DNA of 64,000 bases from Candidatus Shapirobacteria bacterium (GCA_041661765.1 JBAZTV010000001.1:231983-295982), one strand, 5' to 3'; numbered from the stretch's first letter, positions 5,286 to 51,740 are shown. Notes: generated from the letters alone by a model not told the origin. Made by a program: numbers and translations.

Positions 5286-5520
5286 TATTGTGATTAGTCA
5301 AAAACTCAAAACAATTTCAAAAAGTGAAGAAGAAACAAGAGAATATTTTAAGCGAAAATATAATTGGGATATAGCAGAGGCTGATTATCAAGAAGTTTCT
5401 CAGTCCATGTATTACTTAGGTAAAGCGATTTATAGAAGTTTACAATTAGAGTACAAAAGTGACTCAGTCAATATTAAAAATAAGAAAATCATTAGGCAAG
5501 ATAGCAGAAAATTTGTCTGA
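5245..5520 (+). CDS. Hypothetical small protein. The start is uncertain; it overlaps its neighbours.
   Basis: ORF only. A possible GTG start at 5291 lies after the upstream stop. Confidence 0.25.
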   Translation: MSLLFQLKRHLKTNIVISQKLKTISKSEEETREYFKRKYNWDIAEADYQEVSQSMYYLGKAIYRSLQLEYKSDSVNIKNKKIIRQDSRKFV

Positions 5521-5656
5521 CGATGAAGTTTTAAAATTAGATACCAAAATGGAGATTTTTGCCAATCTTATTTTAGATAAAATATTATCCTTAACGCCGG
5601 AAGAGAGAAAAATACTTAATGATAAAATTAGAAAAGGAAATTCAAGTTATATTTAA
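5459..5656 (+). CDS. Hypothetical small protein
   Basis: ORF only. Overlaps the previous ORF by about 60 nt. Confidence 0.2.
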   Translation: MTQSILKIRKSLGKIAENLSDDEVLKLDTKMEIFANLILDKILSLTPEERKILNDKIRKGNSSYI

Positions 5657-5674
5657 AATTAAATTAAAAATAGA

Positions 5675-6487
5675 ATGACATCAAATAACGATGAATTATC
5701 AAAAACTTTAAGATGGAGAGTAAAATCTCTTAAAATTTTTGTTAAAGCATTCAAACGATATATCGAAGTCGCATCACCTTTTGTTACTGAGGATAATACT
5801 GAGCTGAATAAGGAATATAAAGATATACAAAGATTTCTAAGCTATTTTGAAGAGCAAATAGAAAATGGTGATGGTGATTATGATTTTGTTGATTTAATAT
5901 TTTTAGGTAAAAGTTGGGGTAAAATTTATGATCTGATGTGGAAATATAATGGTTGGAAAAAACAACTATTTGATGAAAGAGAAAGAATAATCGTTATTAA
6001 AGCAGCTCTGGAAGGTGACAAAAAACATCTTGAAGAAATAAATGAAATACTAAATAATGATTGTTGGTCATTATTTAACAGATGTCCAATTTTAATTGAT
6101 AGTTTTTATAATGTTATTCATCCGAAGACAGATGATCCAATTATTCAACAAGTCTTTAATATTGAAACTTTAAATGGTGTGCTTGCTGGTACAAATAATG
6201 GAATAATTACTCAAAACAATGAAAGTAAAAAAGTATTAAAAGCTATACAAGAAATAACAAATATTCTTGAAAAAGAATATCTTGAAAATAAAAATACACC
6301 GGAGATACTTTCAAATTTACAAGAGATTCAAGGTGAATTACTTAAACCATTTCCTGATAATTTAAAAATGAAAAAAGCTGCTGATGGACTACAGACGGTT
6401 GCAAATATTACTCAGATTGGTTCATTCGCGGTTGCAATCGCACCCCATTTGCAGACAATACAACAATTTATCAGTAAATTTATTTAA
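5675..6487 (+). CDS. Hypothetical protein (270 aa), island cargo
   Basis: Long ORF with no recognisable motif. Its stop overlaps the stop of the convergent recombinase gene. Confidence 0.45.
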   Translation: MTSNNDELSKTLRWRVKSLKIFVKAFKRYIEVASPFVTEDNTELNKEYKDIQRFLSYFEEQIENGDGDYDFVDLIFLGKSWGKIYDLMWKYNGWKKQLFDERERIIVIKAALEGDKKHLEEINEILNNDCWSLFNRCPILIDSFYNVIHPKTDDPIIQQVFNIETLNGVLAGTNNGIITQNNESKKVLKAIQEITNILEKEYLENKNTPEILSNLQEIQGELLKPFPDNLKMKKAADGLQTVANITQIGSFAVAIAPHLQTIQQFISKFI

Positions 6488-8205
6488 TAAATCCCGCATA
6501 CAGCTATTCTTATTTGTTCCAAAGCAGGGAGCATAGACAATTTTTTATCGCACAAACCATCATATTTATTGGTATCTTCCATTAAATCTTTAGGTTCGAA
6601 CACCACATATTTCTTATCATCAGAGTTTTTAAATTCAACAATGTACTGAAGTGGTTTTGTAAGGTTGATTCCAATGATTTTGTCTTTCAATGTTAGGTTC
6701 GAAGATAAAGAAAGCAATATTTGTTTTCTCGTCTCTAAGTCACCATTTTTAAACCAATATTTGGCATAACAAGCAAAGTTAAAAGTTCGTTCTGATAATT
6801 CAACCCATTGATTGACTCGATCACCAGTTTGATTCATCTTTTCTTCCAATTCTTTTTTCTCTTTCATTAATGTTTCTTTTTGACTCTTAAATTCATCGTC
6901 AGACAATAATTCATTGTCGGTGTTTTGTGGCGATATTTTTAATTTAACTAGGTTATCGATTCTATTAACAACTTTTTTATAGTCTTCTTGGAAAGAATCA
7001 ATTGAGGCATTACGGCTGACTTTTTCTAAATCATAAAGTCTGTTTAATCTTTTGATCGCCCAATTTTTAAATCTCTCTGAAATTTGAATTTTTCCCAAAT
7101 ATTCTTCAACTTGTTCCATTAATTTTTCTTCAGTGACACACCCTTGAGTACAGTGAGGGTTTTTACTTTTAGCACAGTGGTAGTAAGTGTAGTGAAGTAA
7201 TTTTGGATTAACCATATTTTCAATCAAAGTTTCACATTTTGGACAAGCTTTTTTATTCATTGAGGCAAATTTCTGTTTACAAACAGGGCAGATTATTTGA
7301 AACTTTTCTTCAGCAGTAATGGCACCGCCACATTCATTGCATTTAATTAACCCAGATGCAAAAAATTCTCTTGTGTGTGGTCGAGGACTACAACCTTTTC
7401 CGAGCAATATTTGTACTCTATCAAAGTCTTGTCGTGTAATCATCGGTTCATGTTTACCTTTATAAATTTTTCCAGCATATTCAAACTCTCCAAAATAAAA
7501 AGTATCTTCAAAGATTTTATAAATTGTTGATCGTGGCATTGGCTTACCACCATATCGTCCATTTTCAGGAGATCGATATCCCATTTCAGTATTAATATAT
7601 CTTTGAATCTTTGGTGGTGACCATGCACCAGTCAGCATTAACTCCCAAGCCTTTTTTATGATTTGGAATCGAATTGGATCAGACTGAATTTTTTTATTTC
7701 CTTTACTAGAATAGCGATCATTCATATAGCCTGGTTTTGCCCCACTTGGTAACCACCCCATTTCAGCCTTAGTTTTTAATCCACGTTTTACATTTCTTGA
7801 GAGGTCGAGAATAAATTGATTTGCCATACCTCCCTCTACATAAAGCATCAAATTATCGATCGTAGTATATGATTTTTGAGGAGTGACAATAACTACTTCT
7901 TTATCATTTACTGCCCATGTTATTGCACCCATATCGATTGGGTTACGATATAGACGATCTAACTTCCAACAAACAATTCCATTAATTTCTCCAGTTTGTA
8001 CTCTAGCCATCATTTTGGCAAATATTGGTCGCCCTGGTGCTTTTGCGGATTTTGATTCAGTGTAAATGTCTTCTTTCTCAACCTTAATGCCACTTCTTTT
8101 TGCCAATTCTTTAAGTTCATTTAATTGGCTATCAATAGAAAGCACCTGTTTATCTTCAGTGTCAGTCGATTTTCTAGCATAAATGACATATTTCATATTT
8201 TCCAT
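6484..8205 (-). CDS. Large serine recombinase (integrase)
   Basis: N-terminal resolvase catalytic domain 'YVIYARKSTDTEDKQVLSIDSQ'. 573 aa, with a recombinase domain and Cys-rich zinc-ribbon region (CNECGG...CPVC...CPKC). Confidence 0.85.
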   Translation of the reverse strand: MENMKYVIYARKSTDTEDKQVLSIDSQLNELKELAKRSGIKVEKEDIYTESKSAKAPGRPIFAKMMARVQTGEINGIVCWKLDRLYRNPIDMGAITWAVNDKEVVIVTPQKSYTTIDNLMLYVEGGMANQFILDLSRNVKRGLKTKAEMGWLPSGAKPGYMNDRYSSKGNKKIQSDPIRFQIIKKAWELMLTGAWSPPKIQRYINTEMGYRSPENGRYGGKPMPRSTIYKIFEDTFYFGEFEYAGKIYKGKHEPMITRQDFDRVQILLGKGCSPRPHTREFFASGLIKCNECGGAITAEEKFQIICPVCKQKFASMNKKACPKCETLIENMVNPKLLHYTYYHCAKSKNPHCTQGCVTEEKLMEQVEEYLGKIQISERFKNWAIKRLNRLYDLEKVSRNASIDSFQEDYKKVVNRIDNLVKLKISPQNTDNELLSDDEFKSQKETLMKEKKELEEKMNQTGDRVNQWVELSERTFNFACYAKYWFKNGDLETRKQILLSLSSNLTLKDKIIGINLTKPLQYIVEFKNSDDKKYVVFEPKDLMEDTNKYDGLCDKKLSMLPALEQIRIAVCGIY

Positions 8206-48495: not shown

Positions 48496-49653
48496 ATGCT
48501 TTCTCAACCACTAGCCTCACTACTTCGCCCTAAAAATTTAGCCGATTTTGTCGGCCAAACTCATTTAGTTGGTCCACAAAAACCACTCCGTCTTGCCATA
48601 GATAACCATCAAGTTTTTTCTATGATTTTTTGGGGACCTCCTGGAGTTGGTAAAACCACTCTTGCTCGAATTTTAGCTGGACAAGCACAAGCGATTATTC
48701 ACGAGTTATCAGCCGTTTCTGCCAGCAAAGATGATATCAAAAAAATTATTGCATCAAGTCGCCCCATGGAGAAAACTATTCTTTTTCTCGACGAAATTCA
48801 TCGTTTCAACAAAGCCCAACAAGATTTTTTACTTCCCTCTGTCGAATCCGGCGTTTTAACTTTAATTGGTGCTACTACTGAAAATCCCAGTTTTGAAGTC
48901 ATTTCTCCATTGCTTTCTCGGTGTCGGGTTTTTACCTTAAAAGAATTAACCGATGATGAAATTGGTGAAATTATTATTCGTGCTTCCGTCAAACTCGAAA
49001 CTAAAATCAGTAAAGATGCAAAAGAATGGCTTACTCAAATGGCCAATGGCGATGCTCGTCAATGTCTCACTATGATCGATAACGCCTTCACTCTTTATGG
49101 TAATTTAAAAATCGAAAGTCTCAAACAATCTCTTCAAAATTCTTTTCTTCGTTTCGATAAAAAAGGGGAAGATCACTATAATACAATCTCCGCATTCATA
49201 AAAAGCATGCGCGCTAGCAATATTGATGCCTCTCTATATTATCTTGCCCGCATGATTGATGCTGGCGAAGACCCAAAATTTATCGCCCGTCGCATGGTTG
49301 TTTTTGCCAGTGAAGACATTGGTATTGCCAATTCTTCGGCATTAATGTTAGCTAACCAAGTTTTTAGAAGTGTTGAAACTATTGGTTATCCCGAGTGTCG
49401 TGAGAACCTTGCCCATGGTGTGGTGTATCTCGCCAAATCGCCCAAAGATCGCTCGGCCTATGAAGCCTATTTAAGTGCTCTTAAAGATGTTCAAACTTTC
49501 GGTAATCTTCCAATACCGCTTAATCTCCGCAACCCTGAGACTAAATTAATGGAAGAAATCGGCTATGGCAAAGGCTATGAAAAATACACTAAAGAATCTT
49601 TATTACCCGACAAAATCAAAGACAAAAAATATTTTGTAGAAAAGAAAAAATAA
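48496..49653 (+). CDS. rarA: Replication-associated recombination protein A (AAA ATPase)
   Basis: '[13 protein letters not shown]', '[15 protein letters not shown]', MgsA C-terminal region. Confidence 0.85.
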
Positions 49654-50303
49654 TGGATAATAATAAATTAAACAATCCAATAATAGGTGATATTAAAAAA
49701 GCTTTAGTTTATATTAACTCAGATCTAAACAGATTAATAAAAGAAATAAAGCCAAGAAATAATATCCCAGGAGATTGTAATTTTCCAATAATACTTTTTT
49801 GTCTTACAAGTATTGAATTTTTAGGAACACTTTGTTTTGATGATTCTACTGATGAACAACGTTCCAAAAAATACATTGAAAAATATTTTATTGATAATAA
49901 AAGTAAAGAATTAATATACAAATTCGGAATCTTAAATTTTGTAAATATTTTTAGAAATGGACTTACACATAATTTTTATGTAAAACATGGTTTCGGAATA
50001 CAAAGAAAAAGTAGAGAAATTTTATTTCTAAATCGAGAAAACAAATTTATTTTAAGGACAAATAAATTTGTAAATTCTTTTTTAAAATCTTTATCTTCTT
50101 TTGAAGAAGAATTAAAAAATAATAATTTTCAGGATGAAATATGTCGAAGATATTTAAAATTAATTAATGATGATAATAAAAAATTTAATGTTTTTTCCAG
50201 TAAAGTTTCCATAGATAACTTTACTGTTAAAGCGGCAAATGCTTCAACTTCAAGTTATAATCTATGCCCAAGTGCTGCAAATGTTGATAATATTTATGAC
50301 TGA
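49653..50303 (+). CDS. Hypothetical protein
   Basis: ORF whose start overlaps the rarA stop. No motif recognised. Confidence 0.4.
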   Translation: MDNNKLNNPIIGDIKKALVYINSDLNRLIKEIKPRNNIPGDCNFPIILFCLTSIEFLGTLCFDDSTDEQRSKKYIEKYFIDNKSKELIYKFGILNFVNIFRNGLTHNFYVKHGFGIQRKSREILFLNRENKFILRTNKFVNSFLKSLSSFEEELKNNNFQDEICRRYLKLINDDNKKFNVFSSKVSIDNFTVKAANASTSSYNLCPSAANVDNIYD

Positions 50304-50340
50304 AAAAATTTTTTACCAAAACAAAAATTTTAAATTTCCA

Positions 50341-50370
50341 TGTAGAGACGTAGCGCGCTACGTCTCTACA
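50341..50370. repeat. Perfect 30-bp palindrome TGTAGAGACGTAGCGCGCTACGTCTCTACA (REP-like), copy A, intergenic
   Basis: Self-complementary as read. Located 56 bp upstream of the RAYT-like gene. Confidence 0.8.
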
Positions 50371-50425
50371 TAACAACAAAAAAACGTTCCTACAAATATA
50401 AATTTATATTTCTATTATTTAAATA

Positions 50426-51019
50426 ATGGTCGATAATCCAACTAAGTTTGCCGATAAATTTAAATTAAAATCTTCTCGTCTCCAAAACTGGAACTATTCA
50501 ACTCCAGGATATTACTTCATCACCATCTGTACCCACAACCACAATAATTTTTTTGGAAAAATTATTAACAACAAGATGGAATTGTCAAAACGTGGTGAAA
50601 TTACTAAATCTGAATTATTAAAAACATTTGAAATCAGAAAAAATATTAAATTACATGAATGGGTAATTATGCCAAATCATGTGCATGTTTTAATGGAAAT
50701 TGAAAAACAAAATTATCAACACAATAAATGTAGAGACGTAGCGCGCTACGTCTCTACAAAACTAAACAACATCTCTACAGAAGAAAATAATAAAAATTTT
50801 TCAAAAATTTCACCCAAACCAAATTCAATTTCATCAATAATACGTTCATTCAAATCAGCCGTTACCCATCAAATAAATCCCAAAACAATATTTTTTGCTT
50901 GGCAACCCCGTTTCCACGATCAAATCATTAAAGATGAAAAAAAATTATTAATGATCAAAAATTATATAATCAATAATCCTATTAATTGGCAAAAAGATAA
51001 ATTTTATAATTTAAAATAA
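50426..51019 (+). CDS. REP-associated tyrosine transposase (RAYT; IS200/TnpA-like HuH) with an in-frame insertion
   Basis: 'GYYFITICTHNHNNFF', HuH 'MPNHVHVLM', C-terminal 'WQPRFHDQII...IKNYIINNPINW' (YafM-like). About 40 extra residues lie between the HuH and Tyr regions and include the palindrome-encoded 'CRDVARYVST'. Confidence 0.7.
   Translation: MVDNPTKFADKFKLKSSRLQNWNYSTPGYYFITICTHNHNNFFGKIINNKMELSKRGEITKSELLKTFEIRKNIKLHEWVIMPNHVHVLMEIEKQNYQHNKCRDVARYVSTKLNNISTEENNKNFSKISPKPNSISSIIRSFKSAVTHQINPKTIFFAWQPRFHDQIIKDEKKLLMIKNYIINNPINWQKDKFYNLK
50729..50758. repeat. Perfect 30-bp palindrome, copy B, identical to 50341-50370 and located inside the RAYT reading frame
   Basis: Identical 30-mer, 388 bp downstream of copy A. 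Confidence 0.8.
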
Positions 51020-51022
51020 AAC

Positions 51023-51502
51023 GTGAATAAAGAAAATATTTCTCAAGCCCTAACTACTGGTTTAGTTGCCGGTTATGCTGGTAAAACTGAATTTATTAAA
51101 ACAAACAGAGGCAGTTTTAGTGTAAAATCCAGTCATTTTGAAGATGAAAAAATAATTTACCATGATGAATGGACAAAAGGTGGCGGACAAGAAATTGTAA
51201 AAATCGGTGAAGAATCATTTACTCGTGTTTATGCTGGAGGGGTTGTCGATAAAGAAGTTTTAGAAAAATTAAATATTACCCATGACGATGTTATTTCTAG
51301 TTTAATGAATAAAATCCAAAAATTAGGTGAAAAAACTCGTTTATTTGCTAATTGCCCTGTAGATTTAGAAAATGATTGGAAATATGAGTACAAGATTTTA
51401 GATCAAGACGATGAAATTTCAGTTACCACAGGCAAAGAAACTATTAAATATAAAGATCAATTGGTTTTTACCCACGTCTTTGTTTTAAGTCCAATTAAAT
51501 AA
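51023..51502 (+). CDS. Hypothetical protein
   Basis: ORF only. Confidence 0.4.
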   Translation: MNKENISQALTTGLVAGYAGKTEFIKTNRGSFSVKSSHFEDEKIIYHDEWTKGGGQEIVKIGEESFTRVYAGGVVDKEVLEKLNITHDDVISSLMNKIQKLGEKTRLFANCPVDLENDWKYEYKILDQDDEISVTTGKETIKYKDQLVFTHVFVLSPIK

Positions 51503-51503
51503 A

Positions 51504-51740
51504 ATGTATTTCCTCTACATACTCCAATGCGCCGACCAAACCCTTTACACTGGCATTACCACCAATTTAGACAGAAGAGTCAAAGAACACAATAATTCCA
51601 AATTGGGTGCCAAATATACCAAGGTCAGACGACCAGTAAAATTAGTTTATTCGCAACAATTTACTGATCGATCAGAGGCCTCAAAAGAAGAATCAAGAAT
51701 TAAAAAATTATCACGTCAGCAAAAATTAAGTCTTTTTTAA
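51504..51740 (+). CDS. GIY-YIG nuclease-domain protein (UPF0213-like)
   Basis: 'MYFLYILQCADQTLYTGITTNLDRRVKEH' GIY...YIG motif. Confidence 0.7.
   Translation: MYFLYILQCADQTLYTGITTNLDRRVKEHNNSKLGAKYTKVRRPVKLVYSQQFTDRSEASKEESRIKKLSRQQKLSLF

Follow-up and report, generated by a model that had tools for sequence, protein, structure and literature searches.

The locus described here raises the question of why a gene for a putative mobilising enzyme should itself contain, in frame, a copy of the palindrome that the enzyme would mobilise: is the intragenic copy a harmless by-product of activity near the enzyme's own gene, or is it part of the control or inheritance of the system? The locus occupies positions 50,341 to 51,019 of a 64,000-nucleotide (nt) stretch of DNA, hereafter the window, from a Candidatus Shapirobacteria bacterium (GCA_041661765.1 JBAZTV010000001.1:231983-295982). 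It consists of a gene for a repetitive extragenic palindromic (REP)-associated tyrosine transposase (RAYT, or TnpA_REP) and two copies of a perfect palindrome, one upstream of the gene and one inside it. We give a probability of about 0.78 to the reading that the locus is a 'REPtron', in which a largely vertically inherited RAYT gene of subclass 2.4, present once in the window, is accompanied by its cognate 28-nt REPs, and in which the RAYT acts on a 'double-foot' REP whose intragenic copy is tolerated in a disordered loop, in a stop-free frame, and is renewed by replacement.

In the 64-kb window there are exactly two copies of the 30-mer TGTAGAGACGTAGCGCGCTACGTCTCTACA, one at 50341-50370 and the other at 50729-50758. 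Allowing up to 3 mismatches added none, and 100 dinucleotide-preserving shuffles gave 0 matches. The upstream REP extends to a 32-bp perfect palindrome (50340-50371, palindromic and assigned to neither strand) around a core formed by the 28-nt double-foot REP GTAGAGACGTAGCGCGCTACGTCTCTAC at 50342-50369, and lies 37 nt past the stop codon of a 216-amino-acid (aa) open reading frame (ORF) and 55 nt ahead of the RAYT ATG at 50426. The intragenic REP (50729-50758, likewise without strand; core 50730-50757) has the same sequence as the upstream copy and is read in frame as CRDVARYVST (C102-RDVARYVS-T111), between the two catalytic motifs described below. The 28-nt element has the layout GTAG-AGACGTAGCGCGCTACGTCT-CTAC, with 5′ GT[AG]G and 3′ C[TC]AC in the stem as in other double-foot REPs. 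Each copy is predicted to form a 13-14-bp hairpin (z of about -7 versus shuffles), with folding energies of -21.7 kcal/mol for the upstream and -20.6 kcal/mol for the intragenic REP. The palindrome is conspicuous because the window is AT-rich, at 31% GC versus approximately 50% for the palindrome. A preliminary description of this DNA had reported an identical perfect 30-bp palindrome upstream of and within the gene and a reading frame that stays open through the internal copy; the two exact copies and the intact 197-aa ORF bear this out, and the upstream placing was also right, although the distance to the gene is 55 nt and not the 56 bp given.

The gene is the only RAYT ORF in the window and lies at 50426-51019 on the + strand. 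Its 197-aa product matches Pfam Y1_Tnp with 29.2 bits (cut-off 23) and has 3955 homologues, the nearest source-named ones being from Candidatus Shapirobacteria. The HUH (histidine-hydrophobic residue-histidine) motif N84-H85-V86-H87 (50675-50686, +) fits the NH[IFV]H of subclass 2.4, and P83, N84, H85 and H87 are invariant in an alignment of 46 sequences (A1). The WQ motif W159-Q160 (50900-50905, +) is part of a WQPRF segment that aligns with W94-Q95 of 4ER8, the structure of E. coli TnpA_REP with a bound REP hairpin, and is at least 90% conserved in A1; in the E. coli enzyme the WQ region recognises the GTAG guide (PMC6006769). The catalytic tyrosine motif Y180-I-I-N-N-P185 (50963-50980, +) fits YIxNNP and aligns with YIYINP of 4ER8, with Y180, N183 and N184 at least 90% conserved in A1. 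An AlphaFold2 model built from A1 has a core with a predicted local distance difference test score (pLDDT) above 90 and places the HUH motif on strand 85-92 and the tyrosine on helix 171-183; the protein ends 12 residues past NP, with no C-terminal tail domain. When the model was compared with the PDB using Foldseek, the top match was 4ER8_A (E 7e-7; template modelling score 0.64, target-normalised), followed by the insertion sequence (IS) enzymes ISDra2 and IS608 TnpA. The window protein is a RAYT/TnpA_REP-type HUH-Tyr enzyme, and on this point the preliminary description agrees with the Pfam match, the motifs and the fold shared with 4ER8.

The intragenic REP falls within a hypervariable loop, predicted to be disordered, at residues 98-126 (50717-50803, +), between HUH strand 85-92 and helix 135-150. 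In the AlphaFold2 model pLDDT is below 50 at residues 98-105 and 107-126. Residues 58-91 of the window protein align with 33-65 of the 4ER8 chain and residues 134-187 with 72-122, which leaves approximately 36 extra residues in the window protein immediately past the HUH strand. An insertion of about 40 residues without counterpart in E. coli YafM had been proposed earlier, and the alignment supports it at this slightly smaller size. Across the 46 homologues in A1 the segment after the HUH motif varies in length and sequence, and the peptides found there take CRDVxxxVST and VETxxxxSLQ forms, at times in several copies. Both forms are encoded by a single DNA element, GTAGAGACG-N10-CGTCTCTAC, read in two frames. 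A function of CRDVARYVST at the peptide level was considered and rejected, as homologues read the same element as VETxxxxSLQ. The distance between the HUH motif and the tyrosine is 96 residues in the window protein and on average 98 in 77 relatives. Of two alternatives offered in the preliminary description, the first, that a REP has inserted itself into a permissive loop of its own transposase, is the one favoured by the disorder and variability of this loop and by the fact that such insertions are a published feature of the subclass. The second, a cis role of the hairpin in the mRNA, keeps a low probability and is taken up below with the other selected roles.

The frequency of intragenic hairpins was determined in a sample consisting of 80 metagenomic relatives (30-46% identical), the window and two genome loci; five more loci from the Candidate Phyla Radiation (CPR), obtained by exact-protein look-up, were handled apart and used for comparisons of conservation, variants and half-units. 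A gene was counted when it had, between HUH and Tyr, a hairpin whose stem measured at least 11 bp, and negatives were inspected by hand. This hairpin-based count was used in place of a strict regular-expression count, 54/83, which is an undercount caused by motif-finding errors. Hairpins were present in 63 of the 77 genes in which both motifs were located automatically (at least 82%; 30-90% identical); the background in flanking DNA is 0.146 per kb for hairpins of this kind. REP peptides are also plainly recognisable in the products of the six genes whose motifs escaped detection. Among the 14 hairpin-negative genes, most contain shorter, longer, weaker or split REP-like hairpins, and about 5, such as those at loci L191, L175 and L180, are entirely without one. 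The preliminary description had regarded homologues with the long segment and no palindrome as evidence against its proposal; such genes exist, with a long HUH-Tyr spacer in these three, but only as a small minority.

The intragenic element measures 28 nt in 47 cases and 29 nt in 8. With respect to the codon frame of GTAG, 38 elements are in frame 0 (VET..SL), 17 are in frame 1 (xRD..VST) and none is in frame 2, which is never used because GTAG would then be read through a TAG stop. Since a single conserved DNA element gives rise to unrelated peptides, selection on the peptide is ruled out. This frame rule for intragenic REPs goes beyond the published account of the subclass.

Comparisons within and between loci show how the intragenic copies turn over. 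Within a locus, intragenic REPs share 91% identity with the flanking ones, and 9/17 pairs match completely; between loci the identity is 65%. At locus L177 two REP variants are present, each both upstream of the gene and within it. In eight CPR orthologues or paralogues the REP occupies one common alignment position. Conserved coding parts of the CPR orthologues are 66-90% identical overall; in 4/8 genes the REP is identical at 28/28 positions, and the conserved coding parts of these four are 66-81% identical to the window. For 28/28 identity in these genes, P is 1e-5 to 3e-3 per pair. In 2/8 genes the REP has been swapped for a different, perfectly symmetric variant, once in the other frame. 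Across 52 loci there are 37 REP variants, nearly all of them perfect palindromes, and the identical 28-mer is found in RAYTs that are only 40% identical. REP variants are exchanged as whole symmetric elements, and the intragenic copy is not a frozen relic.

Partial elements occur as well. Units of 21-24 nt made up of a spacer and a right half-arm can follow a REP, and the window gene has one degenerate unit of 21 nt, AAAACTAAACAACATCTCTAC (50758-50778, +), which encodes ..KLNNIST.., contains the half-arm CATCTCTAC at 50770-50778 and looks like the remnant of a tandem half-REP repeat. Its intact equivalents are found at L202 (3336-3356) and L089. The reading frame is kept because the unit is 21 nt long. 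The half-arm units are consistent with slippage between repeated arms, and no description of half-REP arrays was found in the REP literature examined. Related arrangements were observed outside the window. Downstream of the L202 gene (3603-3698) 3 units of 21 nt (AAAAACAAATTACGTCTCTAC) come after a full REP, and downstream of the L203 gene (3599-3700) the units behind the full REP measure 24, 24 and 23 nt. At L200 a left half-arm unit precedes the intragenic REP, versus the right half-arm unit behind it in the window, and three REP variants, one of them the window 28-mer, are stacked within 200 bp upstream of the RAYT gene (2477-2671).

An exact scan for the 28-mer, with one genome per species, identified at least 118 stretches (L001-L118), mostly from rumen or gut Bacteroidales and often with several copies per genome. 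Other hosts were Chitinivibrionales, Fibrobacterota, Omnitrophota, Leptospiraceae, Ignavibacteria, Acidobacteriota and Shapirobacteria, and GC contents ranged from approximately 31% to approximately 50%. Among the matches listed, 113/121 copies lie outside long ORFs and 3 lie in or beside a RAYT gene. The sequences flanking the 28-mer are not conserved, and some Bacteroidales loci contain doublets 42-45 nt apart. With its GTAG feet and its dispersed copies in other genomes, the window palindrome is a true REP. It had been noted beforehand that a 30-mer without repeats elsewhere in the genome would speak against a REP; the rest of the window does lack it, but it is repeated in related Shapirobacteria and massively so in other phyla. 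Horizontal transfer of the RAYT/REP system and convergence were both considered as sources of the cross-phylum identity of the 28-mer. A literature search for the strings GTAGAGACG and CGTCTCTAC returned only primer and cloning-site matches.

In-frame copies were also found in genes other than RAYTs. Two metagenome-assembled genomes (MAGs) of Shapirobacteria carry the exact 28-mer at the same site of ligA, which encodes NAD-dependent DNA ligase, where it is translated as ..SRDVARYVST.. (L023, gene 5729-7726, REPs at 6429 and 7466; L067, gene 5325-7352, REP at 6622). L023 ligA contains another double-foot REP, for which the other frame is used (NNVETLRATSLPK). At L062, from a MAG labelled Deltaproteobacteria (nzgw173) with a REP at 2882, a 429-aa TldD/PmbA-like ORF contains two in-frame REP-derived inserts (..SVEALHATPLQQ.. 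and ..SASRDVARYVSTGN..). Apparent in-ORF REPs in L018, L029 and L065 were not counted as coding, the frames being apparently spurious in GC-rich DNA. REPs in compact CPR genomes seem to be largely intragenic, with RAYT, ligA and the TldD/PmbA-like gene as instances.

The genes around the RAYT bear on its inheritance. In the window, mgsA and the 216-aa ORF lie upstream, and DUF5680-like and GIY-YIG ORFs lie downstream. The linkage to mgsA is common to L200 and L199, and the GIY-YIG ORF is found in L200 too; this conserved synteny argues for vertical inheritance. On the other side, RAYT genes that are 75-79% identical and resemble paralogues are present in other contexts (L201-L203).

How, then, could a REP come to reside in the gene for its own enzyme? 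By analogy with E. coli TnpA_REP and IS608 TnpA, the enzyme would bind the REP where it folds into a hairpin in single-stranded DNA, use its WQ region to read the GTAG foot, and cut and rejoin DNA via Tyr180 with a metal held by His85 and His87. Through this putative activity, REP copies would be spread and replaced. With a preference for sites near its own gene, the enzyme would let REPs build up around and inside that gene. An intragenic copy would survive only where it is harmless, in the surface loop, predicted to be disordered, that connects strand beta3 (HUH) with helix alphaC, where the encoded peptide would be neutral. It would be restricted to the two frames that avoid the TAG in GTAG, swapped whole for other variants, and would gain or lose 21-nt half-arm units.

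Several observations weigh against this account. The protein scores 68.9 bits with the NCBIfam equivalog REP_Tyr_transpos, under the cut-off of 80, and no biochemical characterisation of any subclass 2.4 enzyme was found in the literature searched. The cis preference is an assumption, and with only two REP copies in 64 kb, active dispersal in this genome would be no more than a possibility. Finally, the hairpin is perfect, nearly universal at one position and far better conserved than the surrounding codons. Such universality and conservation exceed what purely neutral insertion predicts, and the intragenic copy may therefore be under selection.

The alternative that takes up this last point treats the intragenic REP as an element that acts in cis and is under selection, not as a tolerated passenger; we consider it unlikely, but likelier than the other alternatives. 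The element could be an autoregulatory site at which the RAYT binds or nicks the single-stranded DNA of its own gene; it could keep the RAYT low as a stable hairpin in the mRNA, by slowing translation or recruiting RNases; or, as a 'stored' master copy, it could ensure that enzyme and substrate are inherited together. A selected role would account for a perfect 28-nt hairpin kept at one loop position in most members across phyla, for its conservation above that of nearby codons, and for 28-mers common to RAYTs that are 40% identical. It is favoured by the recurrence of the hairpin, which at least 82% of the 77 relatives (30-90% identical) have at a common place in the loop, by the perfect symmetry of nearly all of the 37 variants, and by 28/28 identity next to coding DNA of 66-81% identity. 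The hairpin is also very stable, at approximately -21 kcal/mol, and its two frames yield unrelated peptides, so that any constraint would have to act on the nucleic acid. However, REPs in other genes and in intergenic DNA are conserved just as perfectly across phyla, which makes perfection a property of the REP family and not of the RAYT site. The layout of the loop is variable as well, with 0 to 3 copies, half-units and both frames, and L191, L175 and L180 do without the hairpin. What makes the choice between a tolerated and a selected copy testable is that the hairpin is maintained perfect, replaced whole and identical across phyla while the enzyme diverges.

Far less probable is the alternative in which an IS200/IS605-like unit is bounded by the two palindromes, one as its left and one as its right end, and excision between them, which would remove the 5′ half of the RAYT gene, serves as a programmed deletion or an on/off switch. 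Y1 transposases, including the fold relatives IS608 and ISDra2, do excise DNA between two subterminal hairpins; the window copies are identical and 388 bp apart, and L089 has a similar layout with a spacing of 386 bp. Such a unit, however, would hold nothing but the promoter and the gene's N-terminal half. In IS200/IS605 a whole gene is enclosed by two differing, imperfect hairpins, whereas the ends here would be identical perfect palindromes, and in relatives the flanking copy is found upstream, downstream, on both sides or not at all. The motifs are those of a RAYT (NHVH, YIINNP) and not the DH[VI]H and Y[IV]ENQ of IS200 (motif definitions in PMC6006769), and the window has a single copy of the gene. 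The left/right-end reading was rejected on motifs, symmetry and layout. That the palindrome arose by chance or through misassembly, which palindromes in general can provoke, has next to no likelihood given the absence of matches in shuffles, the intact frame and a protein model that is confident outside the loop, and the artefact is already refuted because the identical architecture recurs in independent assemblies from different projects (L088, L089, L200, L202 and L203).

Some further features of the region were recorded. No T-tract follows the upstream REP on the + strand, which makes it unlike a classical terminator; a terminator reading was rejected, as the sole terminator-like call in the region was the intragenic copy on the antisense strand. 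Sigma-70-like promoter sites were no more numerous than in shuffles, and an Rfam scan of 50100-51200 matched no RNA family, returning only sub-threshold MIR9481 and SprD scores far under the gathering values. In most CPR relatives the sequence TTGCCATAATTATTT is conserved right before the RAYT start codon (L199, L201 and L202, 2975-3000; L203, 2980-3000; L089, approximately 440-457); in the window it has diverged to TTTCTATTATTTAAATA (50400-50425). A possible role for this sequence is that of a -10 box placed to give a leaderless transcript. The 216-aa ORF between mgsA and the upstream REP (49653-50303, +) has no Pfam match; its counterpart in L200 measures 213 aa, and it is absent in L199, where the RAYT gene directly follows mgsA. 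The stand-alone GIY-YIG nuclease-domain ORF encodes 78 aa (51504-51740, +; Pfam E 2e-18) and lies 0.5 kb downstream of the RAYT gene. In L200 it follows the RAYT directly, whereas in the window a 159-aa DUF5680-like ORF (51023-51502) lies in between. The closest database relative of the window protein, P0006 (Joint Genome Institute, 445-kb contig), is 97% identical and annotated as 160 aa with a different start and the end ..KTIFFA, which suggests that the RAYT of a nearly identical strain is frameshifted or truncated.

The arrangement at this locus belongs to a type already described. Quentin, Siguier, Chandler and Fichant (BMC Genomics 2018, 19:475; PMC6006769) defined TnpA_Y1 subclass 2.4 as follows: its proteins have the motifs NH[IFV]H, WQ and YIxNNP, a median of 194 aa, a highly variable insertion that separates beta3 from alphaC, and a median HuH-Y distance of 88, and its REPs are of the double-foot type, with GT[AG]G on the 5′ side and C[TC]AC on the 3′ side. 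They called in-frame REPs between HuH and Y within tnpA_REP a striking trait, unique to this subclass, and placed the variable region, in a homology model, at the periphery and off the DNA-binding surface. Their Table S1 includes 28-nt REPs of a similar type, such as GTAGAGACGCACGGCCGTGCGTCTCTAC, and they suggested that a double-foot REP could stem from a collapsed inverted dimer. Judged by its sequence, the window gene has every defining feature of the subclass that can be read from DNA. The likeness extends to NHVH, WQ and YIINNP, a length of 197 versus 194 aa, the lack of a C-terminal extension, the variable beta3-alphaC insertion, and a 28-nt GTAG..CTAC REP with one flanking copy and one in frame between HuH and Tyr. 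The difference is one of host and not of kind: the hosts named were Cyanobacteria, Bacteroidetes and 'various phyla' (PMC6006769), and the window is from a CPR, Candidatus Shapirobacteria-like genome with 31% GC. An oddity described in 2018 as typical of subclass 2.4 is thereby extended to a small, AT-rich CPR genome. The frame rule, the replacement of whole elements, the half-arm arrays and the cross-phylum identity of the 28-mer go beyond the published account and do not contradict it. From the '(4)' in Table 1 of Quentin et al. we read subclass 2.4 as Group 4 of Bertels et al. (2017, PMC5581495), whose RAYTs are taxonomically scattered and associated with flanking 16-mers of low abundance, approximately 14 per replicon; the low number of REPs in the window is similar.

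E. coli TnpA_REP (YafM, 4ER8), a member of subclass 2.2 and Bertels Group 2, shares with the window protein the Y1 HUH fold, WQPRF, the Y..NP helix and GTAG-footed REPs. It differs in its DHLH and YIHYNP motifs, in lacking the loop of approximately 36 residues, and in having no REP in its gene. The REPs of E. coli, present in hundreds of copies as bacterial interspersed mosaic elements (BIMEs), form imperfect hairpins that are bulged and have one GTAG foot, which is unpaired. TnpA of the IS200/IS605 family (IS608, ISDra2) resembles the window protein in fold, in HUH/Tyr single-strand chemistry and in the use of hairpins as recognition elements; the family differs in being multi-copy, with distinct left- and right-end hairpins, DH[VI]H and Y[IV]ENQ motifs and no hairpin in the coding sequence. 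The window element also differs from a REP doublet forming a hairpin (REPIN), as it is a single 28-nt perfect palindrome without a spacer.

Translated palindromic repeats are also known from Rickettsia, whose palindromic elements form short peptide inserts in permissive regions of proteins. REPs have been found in frame in unrelated genes, including replication and repair genes (Di Nocera et al. 2013, PMC3733652). The inserts in ligA and the TldD/PmbA-like gene are similar to both of these cases, whereas in the window the host gene encodes the REP's own putative mobilising enzyme.

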